DNA from: Gemmatimonadota bacterium
Lineage (GTDB): Bacteria; Gemmatimonadota; Gemmatimonadetes; Gemmatimonadales; GWC2-71-9
Assembly (NCBI GenBank): GCA_003221005.1
Contig: QHTZ01000067.1
Coordinates: 1-11,375, forward strand
Length of the DNA stretch: 11,375 nucleotides
Direction of reading: 5' to 3'
Shown here: in pieces, positions 1 to 11,169 of the stretch
Layout of the letters: each line of letters opens with the position of its first letter
How positions within the stretch are numbered: the first letter of the stretch is position 1
Program-made: the position numbers and the translations under genes
The notes under the pieces: model-generated
The model's database searches: none
What the model saw: the letters and a program-made list of their open reading frames with translations, nothing else
What the model was told of the DNA's origin: nothing

Positions 1-54
1 CTGGGTGCGGCCGAAGAACTTGAGCGCTGAGCAGCGAGGGCAGCGTAAGACCAT
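1..54 (-). CDS. N-terminus of a gene running off the window edge (MVLRCPRCSALKFFGRTQ...), product unknown
   Basis: ATG at 54-52 with AGGAG 11 nt upstream (gaaAGGAGcagaaacccgcATG), open to the window edge, and preceded by a sigma54-type promoter. Only 18 codons are visible. Confidence 0.6.
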   Translation of the reverse strand, partial: MVLRCPRCSALKFFGRTQ

Positions 55-86
55 GCGGGTTTCTGCTCCTTTCGCCCGCGCAGGAG

Positions 87-102
87 GGCAGGTCCTGTGC
101 CC
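87..102 (-). promoter_or_regulatory. sigma54 (-24/-12) promoter of the gene starting at 54
   Basis: Minus strand reads gGGCACAGGACCTGCc: GG(101,100)-N10-GC(89,88), matching TGGCAC-N5-TTGC. Predicted start of transcription ~76, leaving room for the Shine-Dalgarno. Confidence 0.65.
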
Positions 103-188
103 CCTGCAGCCAGATCGCGTAACTAGCTTGTGCTGTGTGGGTTACGACATCTGGGCCAGGCTGGAGTTGGCCCCGAGACGAACGCCGT

Positions 189-217
189 CGTTACCGTGCG
201 GTAACGCGGGGAGTAAC
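189..217. promoter_or_regulatory. Palindromic upstream activator (bEBP) site, copy 1
   Basis: CGTTACCG-tg-CGGTAACG perfect 8-bp inverted repeat (189-206) plus an extra GTAAC half-site at 213-217. Centre is ~120 bp upstream of the predicted sigma54 start. Matches copy 2 at 1581-1610. Confidence 0.65.
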
Positions 218-237
218 GCTTTGGCGGGAGTAAGCGC

Positions 238-1470
238 CTACCGTATCTGCGCGACGAGCTGCAGGGTTCCGGTGTTGTTGGGAGCGGTGGAGCTCAAGGG
301 ATTCTGCAAGCGCCACCGGATGCGGTTCACGCATCCGTCGAAGCCCGCCGGCGCGCCGCACACGCCGCTCACAGGAACGTAGGTCCACGTCGCGCCGCCG
401 TTGTTCGAATAATCGACCACCACCGACACGCCGGCGGGCAGAGTGTTCACGATGCTCCCCACCTTGAAGAAGACAGCCGCGGGGAGGGTGTCCACCACCA
501 CGACGCTCTCCGCGTTGCTGCTGCCGATGTTGCTGAGGGCGACCGTATACGTGAGGTTCGCACCGGGTAGCTGAGTGCCAGCCGGGCTTACGCTTTTGGT
601 CATCGTCATCGTCGGCCGGAGCACGGTGACCGTCAGCTTCCCTGTGTCAGCTGTCGCGGGACTCAGGACGGCGCGGGCTTTGAAGACCAGCGTATCCTTG
701 GCGCCCGACGCTGCCATCGCGACCCAGTAAGCGACGGTCGCGGTGGCGGAGGCGCCTGCGAGCAGGTTCGTCAGGCGCGCGCTGTCGGGGTTCGCGCCCT
801 GCGTAATCCCCGCCCCGACGATCGACAAGGTCGAGATCACGGTGCCGGGCCGCTTGGTCGTCAGCAGATCGTAGCTGGTGGAGCCATTGCCCGTGTTCGT
901 CACCGTGAAGGCCACGGTGTAGTTGAGCCCGTTGCTCGGCAGCTGGCTCGTAGTCGTAGCGTGAGGGGCGACGAGCACCGCATAGACCTTGGCAGAGATA
1001 ATCTTCGTGCGGGTATCGTTCGCAACGACCGCGCCGCCCGACTTCTCAATCAGGCCCAGGCTGGCAGGCCCCGAGGCGGCCGTGAAGCTCGTGAACTTGA
1101 GCCCTGAGATGACGACAGTGTCGGCCGGTCCGAAATTCGAGAGCACGTTCAAGACCACAATCTTGCTGGCGGACTCATAGGGGAGCAGAATCGGGCTCAC
1201 CTTGGCGGCGGACCTTCCCGTGACCGTTACCGTGGCGACCGTCGCGTCCCAGACCATGGCGAGGGCGGCGGGGATCTGGATCCGGAGGTCGTTGTTGAAC
1301 TTGAGGTTGCGATCGACAATCGTGATGGCGCTCGCAGCCGTGCTCGGATCCGCTACCACCAACGTCTGATTGGCAGCCGAGGAAATCGTCTGGGCGGCGA
1401 GCGGCGACACTGCGCCCCCGACGCCGAGACAGGCGAGCAGGATGCCGCCGAGCGAGATACGGGTCTTCAT
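238..1470 (-). CDS. Secreted beta-rich Ig-like protein with C-terminal DUF11 (conserved repeat) domain
   Basis: ATG at 1470 gives a Sec signal peptide (MKTRISLGGILLACLGVGGAVSPLAA/Q). Thr/Val/Ser-rich body. The C-terminal TKSVSP..PGANLTYTVALSNIG..A..VVVVDTLP..F..GS matches the DUF11 signature. The longer TTG start at 1524 overlaps the sigma54 promoter. Confidence 0.8.
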   Translation of the reverse strand: MKTRISLGGILLACLGVGGAVSPLAAQTISSAANQTLVVADPSTAASAITIVDRNLKFNNDLRIQIPAALAMVWDATVATVTVTGRSAAKVSPILLPYESASKIVVLNVLSNFGPADTVVISGLKFTSFTAASGPASLGLIEKSGGAVVANDTRTKIISAKVYAVLVAPHATTTSQLPSNGLNYTVAFTVTNTGNGSTSYDLLTTKRPGTVISTLSIVGAGITQGANPDSARLTNLLAGASATATVAYWVAMAASGAKDTLVFKARAVLSPATADTGKLTVTVLRPTMTMTKSVSPAGTQLPGANLTYTVALSNIGSSNAESVVVVDTLPAAVFFKVGSIVNTLPAGVSVVVDYSNNGGATWTYVPVSGVCGAPAGFDGCVNRIRWRLQNPLSSTAPNNTGTLQLVAQIR

Positions 1471-1485
1471 GTCAACCAGACTAAG

Positions 1486-1501
1486 GGCAAGCAGCGTGCC
1501 C
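1486..1501 (-). promoter_or_regulatory. sigma54 (-24/-12) promoter of the DUF11 gene
   Basis: Minus strand gGGCACGCTGCTTGCc: GG(1500,1499)-N10-GC(1488,1487), near-consensus GGCACG-N4-TTGC. Confidence 0.8.
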
Positions 1502-1531
1502 ACCGACCCCAGACGCAGCCGCAATTATGCC

Positions 1532-1544
1532 AATCAGTTAGCTA
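1532..1544 (+). promoter_or_regulatory. Possible IHF binding site between enhancer and sigma54 promoter
   Basis: AATCAG-TTAG-CTA versus WATCAR-N4-TTR (1 mismatch), in an AT-rich patch at the position typical for sigma54 promoters. Confidence 0.4.
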
Positions 1545-1580
1545 GCTTGCTCGCGTGTCGCGAACCGACTGGGGAATGGT

Positions 1581-1610
1581 CGGTTACCGCTTGGTAACCG
1601 CAACGGTATC
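1581..1610. promoter_or_regulatory. Palindromic upstream activator (bEBP) site, copy 2
   Basis: CGGTTACC-gctt-GGTAACCG perfect 8-bp inverted repeat (1581-1600) plus an extra GTATC half-site at 1606-1610. Centre is ~115 bp upstream of the predicted sigma54 start. Confidence 0.65.
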
Positions 1611-3006
1611 ACCCCGGCTCCCCAGTGTCGGAGCTGGGCTCCAGCAACCCGTACTTCTTGCGCTTCTCCCACAGGTTCTTGCGCGAAATACCCAGGATCT
1701 CCGCGGCCCGCTGGATGTTGCCGCCGGTGTCCTCGAGGGTGTGGCGAATGTATTCGCGCTCGGCGTCAGCGAGCGACAGCCGCCTCGGCAACTCGAACTT
1801 GTCGGGACGAGCGTCTGCGCGCGCCGCGCCGTCGAGCCGCCCGAGCGCCGGCAAGTCCGTGCGTTTCAGGCTGGGCCCGTCGCTGAAGATCATGCCGCGC
1901 TCGATCACGTTGCGCAGCTCGCGTGCATTGCCCGGCCAGTCCCAGGCCTGGAGCGCTTGCAGGGCGTCTGCGTCGATGGCGGCGACGTGCTTCTTGAACT
2001 CCCCGTTGAACCTCTCGCGGAAGTGATTGGCGAGGACCGGCAGGTCGCTCTTGACCTGGCGGAGTGGGGGCAGCGTCACGGCGGCGACACTGATCCGATA
2101 AAACAGGTCGGCCCTGAATTTGTTGGCCTGGACCTGCTGCTCGAGGTCGCGGTTCGTGGCGGTGACGAGACGGAGACCGACCTCCATTTCGTCGGTGCCA
2201 CCGAGGCGCCGGAAGCGCCGACTCTCGAGGACATTGAGGAGCTTTGACTGCAGCTCCGCGCCCAGCTCGGCGATTTCATCCAAGAACAGGGTCCCGCCGT
2301 CGGCGACCTCGATGAGCCCTCGCTTCGCCTCGCGTGCGTCCGTGAAGGCGCCTTTCTTGTAACCGAACAGCTCGGCCTCGAGCAGGTTGGCGGGCAGCGC
2401 CGAGCAGTTGATTTCCACGAACTGCCCCGCGGAGTGGGGGCTGGAATAGTGAATCGCCCGCGCCACGAGATTCTTCCCCGTCCCGCTCTCACCCAACAGG
2501 AGCACGGTCGGGCGAGGGATGGCCGCCATGCGCCGCACGAACGCCCGCACCTCTTCGATTTTCGGGTGTTGGCCCAGGATCGCTTGAACCGAATACTCCC
2601 GGCCCCGCGCCTGCTCGAGCGAGGCCCCCGCTTCAAGCAGCGGGCGCTCCGCCAGGGCGCGCGTGAGGAGCGTGGTCAGCTCGTCGATGTTGACCGGTTT
2701 GGTGAGGTACTCGGTCGCGCCAGCCTTGAGCGCCTCGATGGCCGTGGCGATGTCGGCGTGCCCCGTCAGCACGAAAATGGGCAGGTGGCGGTCGACCGTG
2801 CGCAGCCGGCGTGTCACCTCAACGCCGTTCAGCTCGGGCATCACGAGGTCGGTGATCACGGCGTCGGGAGGCTCCTCGGCATGGCGCGCCAGCAGCGCGT
2901 CCGGGTGGCCGAACACCTGGGTTCGGAACCGCCCCGGACCGAGGTTCCCAGCCACGAGCTTGGCGTGCACTAGATCGTCGTCGAGGATGTAGACTTTGGG
3001 AATCAT
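1609..3006 (-). CDS. sigma54-dependent response regulator, NtrC/AtoC family (REC-AAA+-Fis HTH)
   Basis: REC (ILDDD...ITDLVMP...LTGH...KP), Walker A GESGTGKN, GAFTDA loop (2335-2352), Walker B LFLDEI, FRADLFYRI, WPGNARELRN, and C-terminal HTH GNIQRAAEILGISRKNLWEK. Start is probably ATG 3006 (MIPKVYIL); ATG 3048 is an alternative. Confidence 0.95.
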   Translation of the reverse strand: MIPKVYILDDDLVHAKLVAGNLGPGRFRTQVFGHPDALLARHAEEPPDAVITDLVMPELNGVEVTRRLRTVDRHLPIFVLTGHADIATAIEALKAGATEYLTKPVNIDELTTLLTRALAERPLLEAGASLEQARGREYSVQAILGQHPKIEEVRAFVRRMAAIPRPTVLLLGESGTGKNLVARAIHYSSPHSAGQFVEINCSALPANLLEAELFGYKKGAFTDAREAKRGLIEVADGGTLFLDEIAELGAELQSKLLNVLESRRFRRLGGTDEMEVGLRLVTATNRDLEQQVQANKFRADLFYRISVAAVTLPPLRQVKSDLPVLANHFRERFNGEFKKHVAAIDADALQALQAWDWPGNARELRNVIERGMIFSDGPSLKRTDLPALGRLDGAARADARPDKFELPRRLSLADAEREYIRHTLEDTGGNIQRAAEILGISRKNLWEKRKKYGLLEPSSDTGEPG

Positions 3007-3010
3007 GAGT

Positions 3011-3042
3011 CCAATATTTTCCCGTGCGCCCGCTAATATTGG
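3011..3042. promoter_or_regulatory. AT-rich inverted repeat in the divergent promoter region
   Basis: CCAATATT-N16-AATATTGG within a 63-bp divergent intergenic gap. It includes a TAATAT -10-like hexamer (3034-3039) on the + strand. Confidence 0.45.
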
Positions 3043-3069: not shown

Positions 3070-3441
3070 ATGGCCCGCCCGTTCCGGGCGTTGATCATCG
3101 ACGATGACCGCGACCTCGCCCTGCTCGTGCGGCGGACGCTCGAGTTCACCGCCGGCTGGGAGGTGGTCACGGCCGCATCGGGGGCCAGCGGCATCGAACT
3201 CGCCCGGAGCGCGGCGCCGGACGTGATCCTGGTGGACCTCATGATGCCGGAGCTGGACGGCTACGAAGTGTGCCGGCGCCTGAAAGCGGACCCGGCGACG
3301 GGCGCGGTGCCGATCGTGCTGCTTACCGCCCGCCGCGACTTGGACCAGCGCCGGCTCGCCGAGAGTGGCGCCGCCGGGGTTGTCTTCAAGCCATTCCAGC
3401 CGGACGACCTGGCCCGGGAGGTCCGGGCGCTGTGCTCATGA
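3070..3441 (+). CDS. Single-domain response regulator (CheY-like receiver)
   Basis: LIIDDD...ILVDLMMPELDG...LLTA...FKPF with all catalytic residues present. AGGAG lies just upstream. The stop overlaps the next start (ATGA). Confidence 0.93.
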   Translation: MARPFRALIIDDDRDLALLVRRTLEFTAGWEVVTAASGASGIELARSAAPDVILVDLMMPELDGYEVCRRLKADPATGAVPIVLLTARRDLDQRRLAESGAAGVVFKPFQPDDLAREVRALCS

Positions 3442-6188
3442 CGGTTCCCGATCCCCTGGCTGAAGTGCGGGCGGAGTTCGCGGCCGGGCTGGCCCAGCGC
3501 ATCGACACGATGCGGGCGGCGCTCGCAGCGCTCGAGGCGGGGTTCGGTGTCACGGACGCGGAGGCGTTGTACCGGGCAGCGCACTCGCTCGCGGGGACGG
3601 CCGGGAGCTTCGGAGCCGAGGGGCTGGCGCACGTCGCGAGCGATCTCGAGGCGCTGGCGCGCGGCTGGCTGGCGCGCCGACAGGCCGCCCCCGAGGAATG
3701 GCGCATCGCCAAGGCGGCCGTCACCGAGCTCGAGGCGGCCGCGCGGGAATACCGAGCAACCACGCCGTCCGGCGTGCTCCGCTCCCCAGCCGCCCGCCTG
3801 GCCGTCGTGGGTGAGCTCGCATCGCTCATCAATGCCGCCGTCGACATGCGCGAGATTTTCCAGGGCGCGATTCTCAAAGTCCATCGCGTGCTGGACTTCC
3901 GACGGGCGAGCGTGGTGCTCCTAGACGACACGGCGGCCCACTACTACCTCCACACCCTGTTCGACAAGGAGCGGGGCGGGTTCGTTGCCGGCGCAGCGGT
4001 CTTTCCGATCAATCAGGGAGTCGTAGGCCAAGCCATCCGCACGGGGCGGCCCATGCGGGTGAACGCCCTCCCCGGCACCGAAGGCATTCTGTTGCAGCAG
4101 GGCAAGCGTGTCTCGGCGATGATCGTACCCCTGCACGTGGGCGACCGGGTGATCGGCGCGCTGAACTTCGGACATGAAGACCCGGAGCACTACACCGAAG
4201 AGGATCTCGACTGGGCGGTCGTCTTGGGCCGACAGATCGAGACCTCCCTGTACTATTCCAAGCTCCTGAGCACCATCGCCGAGCAGCGGGAGGCGTTGGC
4301 ACGCGAGCACGCGGCCGTGCAAGGCCAGCGCAACCAGCTCGAAGCGCTGATCGACGCCAGCGACGCCGCGATCATGCTCGTCGGCCCCGATCGCCGGATC
4401 GCCCACGCGAACGCCGAAATGGCCTGGCTGGTCGGCATCCCGAGAGAGGCGGTGCTCGGGGCCGGGCTCGACACGGTGCACCGCTTTCTCGGCAGCTCCT
4501 TCCTCGATCCGACCGCGCTACCTGTGCAGGAACATGCCCTCTCCGGAGACGTGGCGCTGCGGGATCGCGTCGAGCTCTCGTTCCCTCGGCGCGCCGTGTA
4601 CCAGCGGGTCGTTGCCCCGGTGCGGGAAAGCGGCGGCTCCCTTCTGGGGCACATCGTGTTGTACCGCGACGTGACCCACGAGGTAGAAGTGGAGCGGGCG
4701 AAGTCCGAGTTCGTCTCGGTGGTGAGCCACGAGCTCCGCACCCCGATGACGTCGGTGAAGACGTCGTTGTCCCTGTTGCTCGCCGGAGCCGCAGGGTCCC
4801 TCGAGAGCGCATCGCGAGAGCTGCTCGAGATCGCCCTCCGCAACGCCGACCGCCTGATCCGGCTGGTGAACGACCTGCTCGACCTTTCGCGCCTTGAGGC
4901 CGGGCGCATGGAGTTCCAGCTCGAGCCGGTGTCACTCGAAGACAGCATCGCGGCGAGCCTTGAAGCGGTCGCGGCATTCGCGGCCGAACAGGGCGTGACG
5001 ATCGCCACCCGGCCGCCGCCCGAGCCTCAGGCGGTGCTCGGCGTGCCCGATCGCGTCCTGCAGGTCGTCGTCAACCTGCTCGCGAACGCGATCAAGTTCT
5101 CGCCCCGGGGTGGCCGAGTCGAGGTCGCCTGGCGGCGCGAGGACGGCGACGCCGTGACCGAAGTGTCGGACCAGGGGCCGGGGATCCCGGCCGACAAGCT
5201 CCAGGCCATCTTCGAGCCGTTCCGGCAACTCGACAGCTCCACCACCCGCGAGCACGGTGGGGCGGGCTTGGGGCTGGCGATCAGTGAGGGGATCGTGGAA
5301 GCGCTGGGGGGCCGATTGTGGGCCGAGAGCGAGCTCGGTGCAGGCTCGCGATTCTTCGTCCGGTTGCCCCTGGCGGCCGCGTCGCCGTCACCGGTAGGCT
5401 CCAGTCGCCCGTCCCCGCCGAAGCCTCAGGCCGCCACCGTGCTGCTCGCCCACCCCGATCCCGACTGGCAGCGTCTGGTGGCGGTGGGCGCCCGACCGGA
5501 AGGCTGGCGCATCGTGCCCGCGGCCACCGGAGCCGAAGCATTGGCGCACCTCCGTGCGGCGCCGGTGGATCTCGTCGTGCTGGCGCTCGAGCTGCCCGAC
5601 ATGCACGGGCTCGCCCTGTTGCAACAGCTGCAGCTCGAGCCTCGGCTGTGCGACATCCCCGTCGTTATGGCCGGCGAGCCGGACCACCTCGCCGGGGCTG
5701 AGGAGGGGACCGCGGTGGCGCCGACGGCGGAGGCCGTCGTCGAGCGGGGGCGGCAGTTGCTCGCGGCTCCACCCCGCCCAGTCGTGCTACTCGTCGACGA
5801 CGATCCGGCGGCGCGCCGTTCCCTCAGCAAGGTGCTACGGCGGGCCGGCTACGCCTGCCTCACGGCGACCGATGCCCGCCAGGGACTCGAGCTCGTGCGC
5901 GCCCGGAAGCCGCGCCTCATCATCACCGATTACGCAATGCCCGGGATGGACGGCCTGGCGTTCCTGCGGGAGCTCCGAGGGGATCCCGCCTTGAAGGTCG
6001 TGCCAGTGATCGTGCTTACCGGCCATGCGACGCGTGGTCTGGCGCGCCAGGTCGGCGACCTGTCGGCTCAGCTGTTTTCAAAGCCGGCTGATCGGAAGGG
6101 ATTGCTCGCCGAGGTCGAGCGGCTGCTCAAGGCAAGTGCATCAATTGTTGCTTCAGGGGGTCGGGGAGCAAAGGAATGGCCTGCTTGA
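3438..6188 (+). CDS. Cytoplasmic hybrid sensor histidine kinase: Hpt-GAF-PAS-HisKA-HATPase_c-pseudoREC-REC
   Basis: ATGA-coupled start at 3438 (MTVPDPL). Hpt AAHSLAGTAGSFG, GAF (SAMIVPLHVGDRVIGALNF..YTEEDL), PAS (LIDASDAAIMLVGPDRRIAHAN..RDVT), H-box SHELRTPM, N-box NLLANAIKFS, G1 DQGPGI, F-box IFEPF, G2 GAGLGL, then two receiver folds. No transmembrane segment seen. Confidence 0.93.
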   Translation: MTVPDPLAEVRAEFAAGLAQRIDTMRAALAALEAGFGVTDAEALYRAAHSLAGTAGSFGAEGLAHVASDLEALARGWLARRQAAPEEWRIAKAAVTELEAAAREYRATTPSGVLRSPAARLAVVGELASLINAAVDMREIFQGAILKVHRVLDFRRASVVLLDDTAAHYYLHTLFDKERGGFVAGAAVFPINQGVVGQAIRTGRPMRVNALPGTEGILLQQGKRVSAMIVPLHVGDRVIGALNFGHEDPEHYTEEDLDWAVVLGRQIETSLYYSKLLSTIAEQREALAREHAAVQGQRNQLEALIDASDAAIMLVGPDRRIAHANAEMAWLVGIPREAVLGAGLDTVHRFLGSSFLDPTALPVQEHALSGDVALRDRVELSFPRRAVYQRVVAPVRESGGSLLGHIVLYRDVTHEVEVERAKSEFVSVVSHELRTPMTSVKTSLSLLLAGAAGSLESASRELLEIALRNADRLIRLVNDLLDLSRLEAGRMEFQLEPVSLEDSIAASLEAVAAFAAEQGVTIATRPPPEPQAVLGVPDRVLQVVVNLLANAIKFSPRGGRVEVAWRREDGDAVTEVSDQGPGIPADKLQAIFEPFRQLDSSTTREHGGAGLGLAISEGIVEALGGRLWAESELGAGSRFFVRLPLAAASPSPVGSSRPSPPKPQAATVLLAHPDPDWQRLVAVGARPEGWRIVPAATGAEALAHLRAAPVDLVVLALELPDMHGLALLQQLQLEPRLCDIPVVMAGEPDHLAGAEEGTAVAPTAEAVVERGRQLLAAPPRPVVLLVDDDPAARRSLSKVLRRAGYACLTATDARQGLELVRARKPRLIITDYAMPGMDGLAFLRELRGDPALKVVPVIVLTGHATRGLARQVGDLSAQLFSKPADRKGLLAEVERLLKASASIVASGGRGAKEWPA

Positions 6189-8064
6189 CTGGTACCGAGA
6201 GCGCAAACCCGGGGGCTTGGGGGAGTCCGGCGCGGTGGATCGAGATCACTTCACCGTCGGCGTTGAAGAGAGGACTGCCCGAAGAGCCGCCGATCGTCAT
6301 GCCGTCGAACTGAATCAGGTCATCGGTGACCCGGGAGATGATCCCCGCGGTCATGGACGTGCGCACCGCCGCCGAGCGTGACCCCGCTCGAGCGAAGCCG
6401 GCGCCAGCCGGATAGCCGATGAGGGCTGCTGGTTCACCTTGCCGCGCCCTGGCACCCCCCCAATCGATTCCCGTCACGTAAGGGCCCTGATACCCGCGGA
6501 TCTTGAGGAGCGCGATGTCGCGCGGCTGCGAGGCGGCGATGACGTCCGCGAAGCGCGCGTCTGCATGATCCGCCATCGTCACCCAGATGGTGTCGGCTCG
6601 CGCGTTGTTCGAATCGGCCACGACGTGCCAGTTGGTGAGCATGTAGCCGTCCGGGCTGATCACAAACCCCGACCCGCTGTAGTACTGGCGACCGAGCGAG
6701 ACCGTGATCAGGCCTACGGCACCCTGGTCTCGTTGCGCCATGCTCGCGAAATCGGTGCCGCGGATGGCGCGCAGTTTGGCCTCAACGCCGGCGGTCTGCT
6801 GCTCCGCGGCCGTGACGGCGTGTCGCAAGCTGTCAATGAGCCCCGGCGACGGAGCCCGGCGCTCGGCCGCCGCCAGTTCGTCGCGTAGCCGCTGCACTTC
6901 GCTTTGAGCCGCGACCCGGCGTGCCTCGCCTGCGGCGAGCTGCTCGGAGACCGCGGCTTGGGCGCGCCCCAGCGCGACCCCCAGCTCGGCGGTGCGCGCC
7001 TGTGCCGATTCGAGCTGGGCTCGGAGGCTGTCCACCCGCGCCGCTGGCGCGGCCGCCGCCCGGGCCGCTGCGAGCTCCTGCCGCAGCCGCTCGGCCTCGG
7101 CGCGCGTCGAGTCTCCGGCGCTACGCTGCTGCGCCGCACTCGCCGCGACTTCCCCGGAAAGGAGCCAGTAGACGGCGTAGACGGCGCCGCCCAGCAGCAG
7201 CACCAGGACGAAGGTGAGCGCCGCGAGCCAGCGGAGCTTGCGACGCGAATCATGGCCCATTTCCGCAGCCAGCGCCCGCAGGAACGCAGTCGATCTCCGG
7301 CCGCCTCGCCGTCGTTCCTCGCGCGCCCGCGTCAGCGCAGCGCCGATCATGCCTCGCAACGGGCGGCCCGCTCGCCCGGGAATCCGAGCCGCCGCCATGG
7401 GGGCGGTGCCGAGCCCCTCGACGATCAGCACAGGCCCGCTCCGGCCGAGCGTGATGTGGTCGCCCAGTCGCAGCGGGAGCAGACCCGTCACCCGGTCGCC
7501 ATTCACAAAGGTGCCGTTCTTGCTGCCGGCATCGCGGATCATGAGCCCGCCCGACTGCCCGATTGTGAGCTCGGCGTGCACACGAGACACGATGGCTTCG
7601 GCTTCCCCCGCCAGCTGGATCTCGCACTCGCGCCCGCGGCCGAGCCGGATGCGTGTGCCCCGCCCCTCGTAACGCCCGCCGGTGGCGGCGTGAAGCAGCG
7701 AGACCGCGTACGCCCGCATCTCGATCGCGGGGTGCTCGGCCACGGTCGGAGCCACCTCCTCGGTGACTGCCGCGACGGTGAGCTTGGGACCCGAATCGCC
7801 CAGGGAAATCTTGTCGCCGACCTTGAGCGGGACGGCGCCGGTCACGCGGGCCCCGTTCACAAGGGTGCCGTTACGGCTGCCAAGGTCGACCAGGTGCCAT
7901 CCGCCACTCGTGTGGCGGACTTCGGCGTGACGCGCCGAGACGACGTTGGCTTCGTCACCGCTGAAGACGATGGTGGAGCCGGGATCGCGGCCGAGCCGCA
8001 CGACGGGTTCGCGGGCCTCGATGGAGCGCCCGGTCGCGAGAGCGACAAGCTTGAGGTACGGCAC
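6127..8064 (-). CDS. Membrane-anchored trypsin-like (S1/HtrA-like, no PDZ) serine protease with two N-terminal FHA domains and a coiled coil
   Basis: Two FHA motifs (LGR...VSxxHA...DxGSxNGTxVNG), a hydrophobic TM (WLAALTFVLVLLLGGAVYAVYWLL) after a basic patch, an Ala/Glu/Arg coiled coil, and the triad TNWHVV / DIALLKI / GSSGSPL. GTG start. Confidence 0.9.
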   Translation of the reverse strand: MPYLKLVALATGRSIEAREPVVRLGRDPGSTIVFSGDEANVVSARHAEVRHTSGGWHLVDLGSRNGTLVNGARVTGAVPLKVGDKISLGDSGPKLTVAAVTEEVAPTVAEHPAIEMRAYAVSLLHAATGGRYEGRGTRIRLGRGRECEIQLAGEAEAIVSRVHAELTIGQSGGLMIRDAGSKNGTFVNGDRVTGLLPLRLGDHITLGRSGPVLIVEGLGTAPMAAARIPGRAGRPLRGMIGAALTRAREERRRGGRRSTAFLRALAAEMGHDSRRKLRWLAALTFVLVLLLGGAVYAVYWLLSGEVAASAAQQRSAGDSTRAEAERLRQELAAARAAAAPAARVDSLRAQLESAQARTAELGVALGRAQAAVSEQLAAGEARRVAAQSEVQRLRDELAAAERRAPSPGLIDSLRHAVTAAEQQTAGVEAKLRAIRGTDFASMAQRDQGAVGLITVSLGRQYYSGSGFVISPDGYMLTNWHVVADSNNARADTIWVTMADHADARFADVIAASQPRDIALLKIRGYQGPYVTGIDWGGARARQGEPAALIGYPAGAGFARAGSRSAAVRTSMTAGIISRVTDDLIQFDGMTIGGSSGSPLFNADGEVISIHRAGLPQAPGFALSVPVKQAIPLLPDPLKQQLMHLP

Positions 8065-9203: not shown

Positions 9204-10235
9204 TCAACGCCAGCGGAAGATGCGCAGCGCGACGCTGAAGCTGGCGAGACCCCACGCGGCGACGATCGCGAGCGGCACGCCCAGCGCCGCGAGTGACACG
9301 CCATCGATCATCACAGCGCGGAGCGAATCGTTCAGCGCGGTGAGCGGCAGCGCGCGGACGAACGGCTGCATCGCGTCGGGAAACCGGGCGTAGGAAAAGA
9401 ACGTGCCGGAGAGGATCCACATCGGCAGCATCACCAGGTTCATCAGGCCGGAGACCGCCTCGACGGTCCGTGCGCGGCTCGCCACGAGCATGCCCAAGCC
9501 GGCGAACGACAACGCGCCCAGCACCGTGACCAGCGCGAGCGCCGTGACCGAGCCGCGGATGCCCACTCGAAACATCACCCACCCGAAACCGACGAGCGCG
9601 GCGATCTCGACCACGAGGAAGACGAGCCGCGACAGGATGAACGAGAGCAGGTAGTCGCTCCTGCGCATCGGGGTCGCCATCAAGCGCTTGAGGAGCTTCT
9701 TCGATCGCGCCTGCACCACGGCGAAGCCCACCCCCCACAACCCGCTCCCCATCAAGTTCATGCCGAGGAGCCCCGGGATCAGGAAGTCGATGTAGCGCGA
9801 GCCCGGCTCAGTCACCCGTTCGTCGCGCACCGCCGCCGGATCCGTACGCCCGCGGGCGCGCTGCAGGACCTCGTCCACCTCGAGGCGAGCGAGACGGCTC
9901 TCGGTGCGCGTCGAGTCGTAGCGGTAGACGACCGGCTCCCCCGGCGCGACCAGAAGCGCGATCCGGCCCGCGCGGAGGGCCGCGCGCGCCTCCGCGGGGT
10001 CGAGCACCCGTGCGGCGAGCGCCGGGGAGTGGTCGAGCACGGCGGCGATGCTGGAATCCCCGGGCCCCGGCGCCACACCGACGCGCAGCTCCCCGGGCCC
10101 GCGGTTACGGAACGCGATGCCGAGCGCGAACGCGAGCACGATCGGGAACCCGAACACCCAGAAGATTGCCTCCGGCTCGCGGTAGAACTCGCGCATGCGG
10201 GCCAGGGTCAACTGGCCGAGGGGGTGGTCACGCAT
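9204..10235 (-). CDS. ABC-2 type exporter permease
   Basis: N-terminal REFYREP + TM, an extracytoplasmic loop, YIDFLIPGLLGM, LKRLMATP, five further TMs and LSGTFFS...LPLT. Overlaps the ATPase stop by 8 bp. Confidence 0.93.
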   Translation of the reverse strand: MRDHPLGQLTLARMREFYREPEAIFWVFGFPIVLAFALGIAFRNRGPGELRVGVAPGPGDSSIAAVLDHSPALAARVLDPAEARAALRAGRIALLVAPGEPVVYRYDSTRTESRLARLEVDEVLQRARGRTDPAAVRDERVTEPGSRYIDFLIPGLLGMNLMGSGLWGVGFAVVQARSKKLLKRLMATPMRRSDYLLSFILSRLVFLVVEIAALVGFGWVMFRVGIRGSVTALALVTVLGALSFAGLGMLVASRARTVEAVSGLMNLVMLPMWILSGTFFSYARFPDAMQPFVRALPLTALNDSLRAVMIDGVSLAALGVPLAIVAAWGLASFSVALRIFRWR

Positions 10236-11169
10236 CGCGCAGCTGCCGCCCCGTGAGAGAGACGAAAACGTCCTCCAGCGTGGCGTGGTGCGTCGTGAGC
10301 AGCGACAGGGCGGCGCCGCGCCGCTCCAGCAAGGCGAGAAGCGCGGGCACCGTGCGATGGACTTCGGTCACGGTGAGCGCGGTGCGTTCCGGCCCGGTGC
10401 GCACCGCGCGCACACCGGGTAACGCGGCGAGGTCTGCGGTGAAGAGCCCGGCCGCCGCGCCGTCGGCGAGCGCAAACTCCACGACGTGCTCAGCGCCGAG
10501 CGTGGCGACGAGGCTCGGAGGCGAGCCGAGGGCGATGACGCGCCCGTGATCCATGATTGCTACGCGGTCGCACAGGCGCTCGGCCTCTTCCATGTAATGC
10601 GTGGTGAGAAGCACCGTGCCGCCCGCCTTGCGGAACCGGCCGATGACCTCCCACAACTCGCGCCGCGAGTGCGGGTCGAGCCCCGTAGTGGGCTCGTCAA
10701 GGAACAGGAGCTCGGGCTGGCTCACGAGCGCGCAGGCCACCGACAGCCGCTGTTTCTGCCCGCCCGAGAGCTTGCTCACCCAGGAGCGCCGCTTGTCCTC
10801 GAGGTCGACGAGACGCAGCACCTCGTCCACCGAGTGCGAGCGGCGGTACAAGCTCGCGAACAGCCGTACCGTCTCCTCCACGGTGAGCTTGTCGGCGAGC
10901 TGGGTTTCCTGGAGCTGAATGCCCAGCCGCTCCTGGAGCGCGCGCCCGCCGGCGCCTTCCCGGTCGGCCCACGGGACGCCCAGCACCTCCACCTCCCCGG
11001 CATCGGGCGAGGTGAGGCCCTCGAGAATCTCGATGGTGGTGGTCTTGCCGGCGCCGTTCGGCCCGAGCAGGCCGAAGCATTCGCCCAGCTCCACGGCGAG
11101 ATCCAAGCCGGCCACGGCGACCACGTCGCCGTAACGCTTGACGAGCCCCGCGCAGCGGATCCCGAGCAC
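10228..11169 (-). CDS. ABC transporter ATP-binding protein (DrrA/NodI-like exporter family)
   Basis: Walker A GPNGAGKTT, signature LSGGQKQR, Walker B LFLDEPTTGLD, H-loop TTHYMEEAE, C-terminal TLEDVFVSLTG. Confidence 0.96.
   Translation of the reverse strand: MLGIRCAGLVKRYGDVVAVAGLDLAVELGECFGLLGPNGAGKTTTIEILEGLTSPDAGEVEVLGVPWADREGAGGRALQERLGIQLQETQLADKLTVEETVRLFASLYRRSHSVDEVLRLVDLEDKRRSWVSKLSGGQKQRLSVACALVSQPELLFLDEPTTGLDPHSRRELWEVIGRFRKAGGTVLLTTHYMEEAERLCDRVAIMDHGRVIALGSPPSLVATLGAEHVVEFALADGAAAGLFTADLAALPGVRAVRTGPERTALTVTEVHRTVPALLALLERRGAALSLLTTHHATLEDVFVSLTGRQLRDA

Follow-up and report, generated by a model that had tools for sequence, protein, structure and literature searches.

A putative sigma-54 mini-regulon of secreted DUF11 proteins in Gemmatimonadota, with a three-half-site operator next to the gene of its probable activator

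The DNA analysed here, referred to throughout as the window, comprises the first 11,375 bases of a 133 kb contig (QHTZ01000067.1; C45) of an uncultured soil Gemmatimonadota bacterium (assembly GCA_003221005.1; G000) and starts at contig base 1. The G000 genome has 2,793,158 base pairs (bp) in 141 contigs and a G+C content of 69%. On the minus strand of the window three consecutive genes encode an NtrC-family activator, a secreted DUF11-repeat protein and a small Zn-ribbon protein, and each of the two latter genes is preceded by a predicted sigma-54 promoter with a candidate enhancer, or upstream activating sequence (UAS), further upstream. In the order in which they are read on this strand, the features are as follows.

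1609..3006, minus strand: NtrC-family sigma-54 enhancer-binding response regulator (the activator), 465 amino acids, assigned with Pfam
1583..1610, minus strand: candidate enhancer 1 (UAS1), minus-strand reading GATAC-N7-GTTACCAAGCGGTAAC, from the sequence and kept in orthologous loci
1487..1500, minus strand: predicted promoter P1, sigma-54 type, GGCAC-GCTGC-TTGC, score 9/11
238..1470, minus strand: secreted DUF11-repeat protein, 410 amino acids, signal peptide MKTRISLGGILLACLG..., assigned with Pfam DUF11 and NCBIfam TIGR01451
190..217, minus strand: candidate enhancer 2 (UAS2), minus-strand reading GTTAC-N7-GTTACCGCACGGTAAC, from the sequence and the alignment
88..101, minus strand: predicted promoter P2, sigma-54 type, GGCAC-AGGAC-CTGC, score 8/11
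66..72, minus strand: Shine-Dalgarno sequence AAAGGAG before the Zn-ribbon gene, from the sequence
1..54, minus strand: small Zn-ribbon protein, first 18 codons (MVLRCPRCSALKFFGRTQ), cut by the contig end, assigned from relatives

The promoter score is a plain consensus count against TGGCAC-N5-TTGCW, with a maximum of 11; some of the assignments of a promoter as present, and the label 'TetR-type' used below, were made by eye. The original prediction had placed GGCAC-N5-(T/C)TGC promoters ahead of the minus-strand genes starting at 1470 and 54, where P1 and P2 were found, and had aligned a motif at 190–217 with one at 1583–1610, each described as a palindrome with a third half-site 12 bp away. 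The palindrome GTTAC-N6-GTAAC is present in both, as GTTACCGTGCGGTAAC (190–205) and GTTACCGCTTGGTAAC (1583–1598), and the third half-sites, GTAAC at 213–217 and GTATC at 1606–1610, are offset by exactly 12 bp in each case. The palindrome centres lie ~115–121 bp from the predicted transcript starts (~115–120 bp had been proposed), and the distance from the UAS centre to the GG of the −24 box is 90.5 bp for P1 and 96.5 bp for P2. UAS1 stands just after the activator stop codon, a TGA that its third half-site overlaps, in the intergenic region that we call IG1; UAS2 follows the stop codon of the DUF11 gene, in the intergenic region before the Zn-ribbon gene (IG2). The spacer between UAS and promoter is locally AT-rich, with GTAA(C/A/G) ~41–54 bp upstream of −24 in some copies of IG2. 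A fourth half-site or an IHF-like element in this spacer was considered but is not claimed, as GTAAC/GTTAC counts are low and scattered and no column is conserved; two genes of the HU/IHF family are present in G000. An 8-mer shared by the two regions, CTAGCTTG (123–130 and 1542–1549), was treated as chance because its distances to the promoters differ and relatives do not keep it.

The motif is rare in the genome. GTTAC-N6-GTAAC occurs exactly four times in the whole of G000 against ~0.08 copies expected from pentamer counts, and no copy was found there at N4, N5, N7 or N8 spacing or with the arms in other orientations. Allowing one mismatch adds seven sites, none of which has a sigma-54 promoter at the usual 70–110 bp; one of them, C34:828, has a weak 8/11 promoter match at 148.5 bp. 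A genome scan for the motif followed by a −24/−12 promoter had been proposed with the prediction, and in it both window copies are promoter-paired. On both strands of G000 the sequence GGCAC-N5-TTGC occurs 25 times and GGCAC-N5-CTGC 46 times, so that ~2-3e-4 matches are expected per 40 bp oriented window. A chance likeness, or a dispersed repeat without a regulatory role, would be in keeping with one of the four genomic copies lying inside a coding region, but it is hardly credible in view of the excess over the expected number; moreover, the motif is kept at the same two places in dozens of genomes while its flanks diverge, and the stretch shared between copies is only 16–28 bp, with no longer repeat unit.

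For the comparison we used the 40 nearest genomes, public orthologous loci and five complete chromosomes; the tallies over 40 relatives count G020 solely as a genome without an orthologue, motif or Zn-ribbon match. An orthologue of the activator (65–80% identity) is present in eight of the 40 relatives (G001, G002, G003, G005, G006, G009, G017 and G019), and the next-best matches, with identities of ≤47%, are paralogues. In all eight, IG1 contains the three half-sites, either exact or with one mismatch, followed at 79.5–96.5 bp by a promoter of the form GG(C)A(C/T)-N5-(T/C/A)TGC. The site and promoter of IG2 are found in seven of the eight (G001, G002 on another contig, G003, G005, G006, G017 and G019, the last with an N5 spacer); the site was not seen in G009. 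Conservation of the motif upstream of orthologues, as had been predicted, is thus observed in eight of eight relatives for IG1 and in seven of eight for IG2. Mean column identity is 43% in the nine-genome alignment of IG1 and 49% in the seven-genome alignment of IG2, and invariant columns are almost confined to the GGCA/(C)TGC boxes and the three half-sites. Those outside them in IG2 fall at the 3′ end of the preceding DUF11 gene, its stop codon included, apart from two or three isolated ones. The GGCA and C.TGC columns of P1 are invariant in nine genomes; the GGCA and CCTGC columns of P2, and all three half-sites of UAS2, are invariant in seven.

Across the relatives the motif, the activator and the target genes co-occur. 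The exact motif is present in seven of the nine orthologue-bearing genomes (G000 included) and absent from 28 of the 32 genomes without an orthologue. Six of the eight relatives have it at the orthologous locus; there is no copy in G017, and the only one in G019 is located elsewhere. The exact copies in genomes without an orthologue number six in G007 (no promoter at any of them reaches 8/11), one in G016, one in G029 and four in G031. Similarly, seven of the nine orthologue-bearing genomes have a Zn-ribbon gene like that of the window, against one marginal match (E = 0.002) in the 32 others.

Both window copies of the motif come right after a stop codon, and each could form a stem of 7–8 bp as RNA. 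The inverted repeat might then act as a hairpin, in RNA or in DNA, by which the upstream transcripts (those of the activator and the DUF11 gene) are terminated or stabilized, with no enhancer at either place. This we consider very unlikely: no T-run follows the repeat, no terminator-like site was called, folding is no better than that of shuffled sequences (z = −1.9 and −1.7) and an Rfam search of the window matched no family. What every locus retains is the sequence of the arms and not only their complementarity; it is shared by IG1 and IG2, and variants with a change in one arm (GTTACC..GGGAAC, GTTCC..GGTAAC and ..GGTAAT) lack compensation in the other. A hairpin would also leave the conserved third half-site and the phased distance to the promoter unexplained.

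Public sequence gave 61 orthologous loci, of which 51 were analysed. The ten that were dropped are L062 and L101, with an incomplete activator match; L081, a 43% match from a Chlorobi-like metagenome-assembled genome (MAG); and L112–L116, L118 and L119, with 39–40% matches from Clostridia and Brevibacillus. Three of the 51 appear to be identical to the records of G002, G003 and G017. The 51 loci total 482,136 bp and contain 56 exact motifs, with at least one in 41 loci. All 56 are downstream of the activator, 36 of them no more than 300 bp from the end of its gene and the other 20 at a distance of 1.4–3.4 kb; no exact motif was found in the ~5 kb upstream of this gene. The 56 sites are 56 distinct 76 bp sequences with the consensus G(t)TACc-N6-GTTACCg-NN-cGGTAAC, from which no fourth half-site emerges. 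The third half-site is GTTAC in 30 of them, GATAC in 11, ATTAC in four and GTAAC in three, and in IG1 it commonly overlaps the activator TGA stop (TGATACC).

A promoter scoring at least 8/11 lies 56–156 bp downstream of 45 of the 56 sites. Seven of the remaining 11 have GGCAT/GGTAT-N5-(C/T/G)TGC when read by eye, in five cases with an AAAGGAG or GGAGAG resembling a Shine-Dalgarno sequence and then a Zn-ribbon start codon; two have weak promoters, one locus ends early and one site has none. The spacing between UAS centre and −24 GG falls into groups of 82–84 bp (22 sites), 90–96 bp (ten sites) and 100–108 bp (12 sites), with one site at 70 bp. The groups are ~11 bp apart, and such clustering fits a looping activator with a face-of-helix requirement.

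The protein encoded at 1609–3006 had been taken to be of the NtrC family, and the Pfam matches agree with this: from the N-terminus it has a receiver (Response_reg, PF00072; E = 2.3e-23), an AAA+ sigma-54 interaction domain (Sigma54_activat, PF00158; E = 2.9e-62; residues 143–310) and a C-terminal helix-turn-helix (HTH) domain of the Fis type (HTH_8, PF02954; E = 5.8e-16; residues 411–452). The Walker A motif GESGTGK is present in 48 of the 51 orthologues, a Walker B-type [LIV]xLDEI in 50 and the phospho-acceptor aspartate motif [VIL][VIL]TDLxMP in 48. The L1 loop, which contacts sigma-54, reads GAFTDA and not GAFTGA (residues 219–224; window 2350–2367). GAFTDA is kept in 50 of the 51 orthologues and is found in three of the nine sigma-54-type AAA+ matches of G000, the activator included (in one of the three as GSFTDA); passages of a survey of sigma-54 regulons place it among the GAFTGA variants expected to retain activity (Kazakov et al., 2015; PMC4641369). 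An rpoN gene is present in G000 (PF04552 match of 215.8 bits at C125:20180–20656). The activator reaches no equivalog cut-off in NCBIfam, with scores of 403.2 bits for AtoC (the best match; cut-off 714), 354.9 bits for PrsR (the second best; cut-off 502.6), 344.1 and 283 bits for NtrC (cut-offs 558.6 and 620) and 307.2 bits for ZraR (cut-off 760), and therefore represents an unnamed orthologous group within the NtrC family. All five complete chromosomes have exactly one orthologue, with 69–72% identity and a next-best match of ≤45%.

The HTH of the activator, LGISRKNLWEKRKKYG, is near-invariant among the orthologues displayed, across which its helix takes the form ISRKNLWEKRKKYG, and the C-termini and HTH regions of the eight other sigma-54-type AAA+ matches in G000 differ from it. 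The proposed co-conservation of motif and HTH helix is therefore seen in these sequences. We infer that the adjacent activator physically binds the motif; it is the likely binder because the motif is tied to its gene, its HTH is near-invariant and the C-termini of the paralogues differ. The promoters and the motif could instead be real with the motif bound by some other factor, a different enhancer-binding protein or a repressor, and the adjacent activator using another site or no specific site. In favour of this, G000 has eight further sigma-54-type AAA+ matches, the same palindrome occurs in an apparently unrelated TetR-type divergent promoter in G031, and an orphan site at C68:12460 of G000 comes without a sigma-54 promoter. 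We judge this to be unlikely. Every one of the 56 exact sites is downstream of an orthologous activator gene, the first usually ≤60 bp from the stop codon, motif and orthologue go together across the 40 relatives, and the HTH is conserved in the orthologues, unlike those of the paralogues. Furthermore, a site that is helically phased and 80–108 bp from the −24 box is in the position of an activator and not of a repressor.

Several observations weigh against control of P1 and P2 by the adjacent activator through this motif. A third intergenic copy with all three half-sites, at C68:12448–12475 of G000 (GTTAC-N7-GTTACCGTGTAGTAAC; locus L135), is the orphan mentioned above: it sits 5 bp past the 3′ end of an apparent tRNA-Arg gene (identified by eye) and before a convergent gene ending in ...RYQF, with no sigma-54 promoter within 170 bp on either strand. 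The coding region that contains one of the four exact copies is UbiA-like. The palindrome alone is not diagnostic; in G031 (C5:363398–363448; locus L043) two tandem copies of GTTACC-N4-GGTAAC, 35 bp apart, sit in the apparently TetR-type divergent promoter, a context unrelated to sigma-54 and, within the order, in a different family. Ten of the 51 orthologous loci have no exact site, although several of these have one-mismatch forms, and the L1 loop of the activator is a variant where GAFTGA is standard. Finally, the genomes compared are related MAGs, so that the counts are not independent and overstate the independent support.

The five complete chromosomes have two to six exact motifs each. 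Both of those in G042 are at the locus, and in the other four chromosomes there are remote copies ~96–99 bp upstream of TGGTA(T/C)-N5-CTGC, heading paralogous small Zn-ribbon genes: G043:C1:1038230 (L120), G044:C1:3023171 (L123), G041:C1:2764482 (L129; promoter read by eye as TGGTATGCCCCCTGC at a similar distance) and G045:C1:3298192 (L134). The proteins encoded at these sites form a family with the pattern MRCPHCHNVG...CQFCQRRVRW, and also MRCPHCHNVG...CQFCQRRVRWTEVQAKYL.... Remote sites without an activator gene nearby are expected because the regulon would act in trans, and its operons seem to begin repeatedly with a gene for a small Zn-ribbon protein. The two promoters of the mini-regulon in the original prediction are retained; its extent is somewhat wider than was predicted, as shown by the orphan at C68:12460 and the remote Zn-ribbon sites in larger relatives. 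A different layout was observed at L121 (G043:C1:2597678) and L125 (G044:C1:3627161), where the stretch from the palindrome to a strong TGGCAC-N5-TTGCC promoter is crowded with several additional GTAAC/GTTAC half-sites. The promoter precedes an apparent lipoprotein-type gene of roughly 400 codons, and these loci may be a further member of the regulon.

From the positions of the promoters, transcripts would start at ~1475 (P1) and ~76 (P2). The ATG of the DUF11 gene lies only 16 nucleotides past the −12 GC of P1 and is followed by a clear signal peptide. An ATG 13–16 nucleotides past the −12 GC was chosen as the start in nine of 12 related loci, and two more have an ATG at the same distance (together L059, L060, L061, L064, L066, L074, L084, L087, L088, L091 and L117); the bases in between vary among the loci. 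Because the ATG is so close and no Shine-Dalgarno sequence fits between P1 and this start codon, sigma-54 transcripts from P1 would have a leader of ~5 nucleotides or less, which suggests that they are almost leaderless. At P2 the Shine-Dalgarno sequence reads AAAGGAG in G000, G003, G002 and G005 and GAGAGGAG in G001; it was not seen in G019, and the contig of G006 ends before that position.

The DUF11 protein predicted to be driven by P1 has 360–1,130 residues in relatives, some with PATR repeats. The Zn-ribbon protein has ~46–66 residues in relatives and heads an operon, which in G003, where the contig is intact, consists of a 60-residue Zn-ribbon protein, secreted DUF11 proteins of 169 and 407 residues and a protein of 1,897 residues. 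The 60-residue protein scores below the cut-offs of all Pfam and NCBIfam families; in the ESM Atlas it is close to unnamed clusters (~0.90) and to Zn_ribbon_Brz (0.89), which we take as leads only. The 1,897-residue protein has N-terminal DUF11 and isopeptide-type domains and a long C-terminal part ending in ...FWRARF. For this part the ESM Atlas gives unnamed clusters, in one of which 33% of the members have Porin_4 (a lead only), and it may be an outer-membrane barrel, although this lead is weak. In G000 the orthologue of the large gene is found on the last ~5.7 kb of contig C37 (reverse) as two open reading frames of 676 and 672 codons, ~1.6 kb apart. The end of C37 is probably the continuation of the P2 operon, broken at the contig end, with the rest of the Zn-ribbon gene and both small DUF11 genes lost in the assembly gap. 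The split of the large gene may be due to a frameshift or to misassembly of its repeat-rich sequence, or the gene may be a pseudogene. The products of the regulon may have a role in a surface structure.

Divergent from the activator are two genes on the plus strand.

3070..3441, plus strand: stand-alone receiver, 123 amino acids, Pfam Response_reg (6.9e-25), divergent from the activator
3438..6188, plus strand: soluble hybrid histidine kinase with the domains Hpt-GAF-PAS-HisKA-HATPase-REC-REC, assigned with Pfam

The ATG of the kinase overlaps the stop codon of the receiver gene (ATGA); the Pfam domains of the kinase were taken from the 3270–6188 frame, and the 3438–6188 frame is open. In 39 of the 47 orthologous loci that have enough upstream DNA, the receiver is divergent from and adjoins the activator, and the kinase is also kept there. 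The hybrid kinase is the likely sensor for the activator, and a phosphorelay from the kinase through the Hpt domain to the receiver of the activator would be the natural reading. The 63 bp gap between the activator and receiver genes contains a perfect inverted repeat, CCAATATT-N16-AATATTGG (3011–3042), the activator-proximal arm of which ends four nucleotides before the activator ATG. A CCAATAT stretch seems to sit just 5′ of the activator start in relatives, where it appears as ANIS in open reading frame translations (L032, L005 and L035). The repeat may be a pair of −10-like boxes facing opposite ways, in which case the activator mRNA would be leaderless; alternatively, it may be an operator. 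Farther along, the minus strand of the window encodes a 645-residue protein in which two FHA domains are combined with a trypsin-like protease domain at the C-terminus (6127–8064) and an ABC-2 permease and ATPase pair (9204–11169).

With the points for and against weighed, we think it probable that the locus constitutes a sigma-54 mini-regulon in which the adjacent activator binds a shared operator and switches on P1 and P2. The divergent receiver and hybrid kinase (3070–6188) would probably phosphorylate the activator (1609–3006), the HTH_8 domain of which would bind a 28 bp operator, GTTACC-N6-GTTACCG-NN-CGGTAAC, made up of one inverted repeat with a third half-site one helical turn upstream. 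This operator would be placed once after the activator's own stop codon (1583–1610) and again after the next gene (190–217). From ~90–97 bp upstream of the −24 box the AAA+ ring would contact the sigma-54 holoenzyme by DNA looping and open P1 (1487–1500) and P2 (88–101). P1 would then express the secreted DUF11 protein and P2 the operon for the Zn-ribbon protein, two DUF11 proteins and the ~1,900-residue DUF11 protein.

The best-known system of this kind is NtrC (NR-I) at glnAp2 of enteric bacteria, in which a protein with receiver, AAA+ and Fis-type HTH domains binds inverted repeats ~100–140 bp upstream of a −24/−12 promoter and acts by looping and ATP hydrolysis; the consensus of its site is TGCACC-N5-GGTGCA. 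The domain plan is the same here, and the half-sites of both end in ACC/GGT. The site, however, is GTTACC-N4-GGTAAC, one palindrome with a single additional half-site where NtrC has two complete dimer sites. The predicted targets encode secreted DUF11 proteins and are not nitrogen assimilation genes, and the activator would be partnered by a soluble hybrid kinase (Hpt-GAF-PAS) and a stand-alone receiver. AtoC-like (type Ia) proteins share the domain order and give the best NCBIfam match, but the score is 403 bits against a cut-off of 714 and there are no acetoacetate genes nearby. PrsR (TIGR02915), the second-best match, is likewise a sigma-54 response regulator and is associated with exported-protein and exopolysaccharide systems. 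Here the score is 354.9 bits against 502.6, and the C-termini of the targets read ...LVAQIR or ...FIARVR, in which no PEP-CTERM tail was evident by eye.

Sigma-54 has been described as controlling the exterior of the bacterial cell (Francke et al., 2011; PMC3162934), and the exported, repeat-rich targets at this locus fit that generalization as it is put in passages of the article; in those passages Gemmatimonas is named only in the legend of a figure that deals with phylum order. In Desulfovibrio vulgaris the regulons of enhancer-binding proteins have been predicted computationally, with few target operons each (Kazakov et al., 2015; PMC4641369). According to passages of that article the logic is the same, and the phylum, motif and target set differ from those described here; the same passages contain nothing on this orthologous group. 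Among the matches listed in searches of open-access full text there was no sigma-54 regulon for Gemmatimonadota and no paper on this motif, and the matches listed for the motif sequences were only of the primer type. The putative regulon is therefore ordinary in type, a regulon for cell-surface proteins, and previously undescribed, with an NtrC-family activator that would have a new operator. Its proposed mechanism follows the textbook scheme for enhancer-binding proteins and so extends what is known and does not change it.

More tentatively, the hybrid kinase, the receiver, the GAFTDA activator, the 28 bp '1.5-site' operator, the near-leaderless sigma-54 transcripts, the small Zn-ribbon protein heading each further operon, the DUF11 subunits and the ~1,900-residue protein might together be one module, a lineage-specific system that builds a DUF11-based cell-surface structure in Gemmatimonadota, with the Zn-ribbon proteins as dedicated co-regulators or feedback partners. 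We regard this extended picture as conceivable rather than probable.

The Gemmatimonadota are abundant in soil and little cultured, and here a regulon can be read from sequence and is kept in dozens of genomes. Together, the operator, the two promoters, the cognate activator and the candidate sensor would make up a defined regulon, which offers a handle on uncharacterized DUF11 surface proteins and small Zn-ribbon proteins. Of wider interest are the three-half-site operator, the ~11 bp phasing of the enhancer-to-promoter distance and the gap of 13–16 nucleotides between the −12 box and the start codon of the first target gene.

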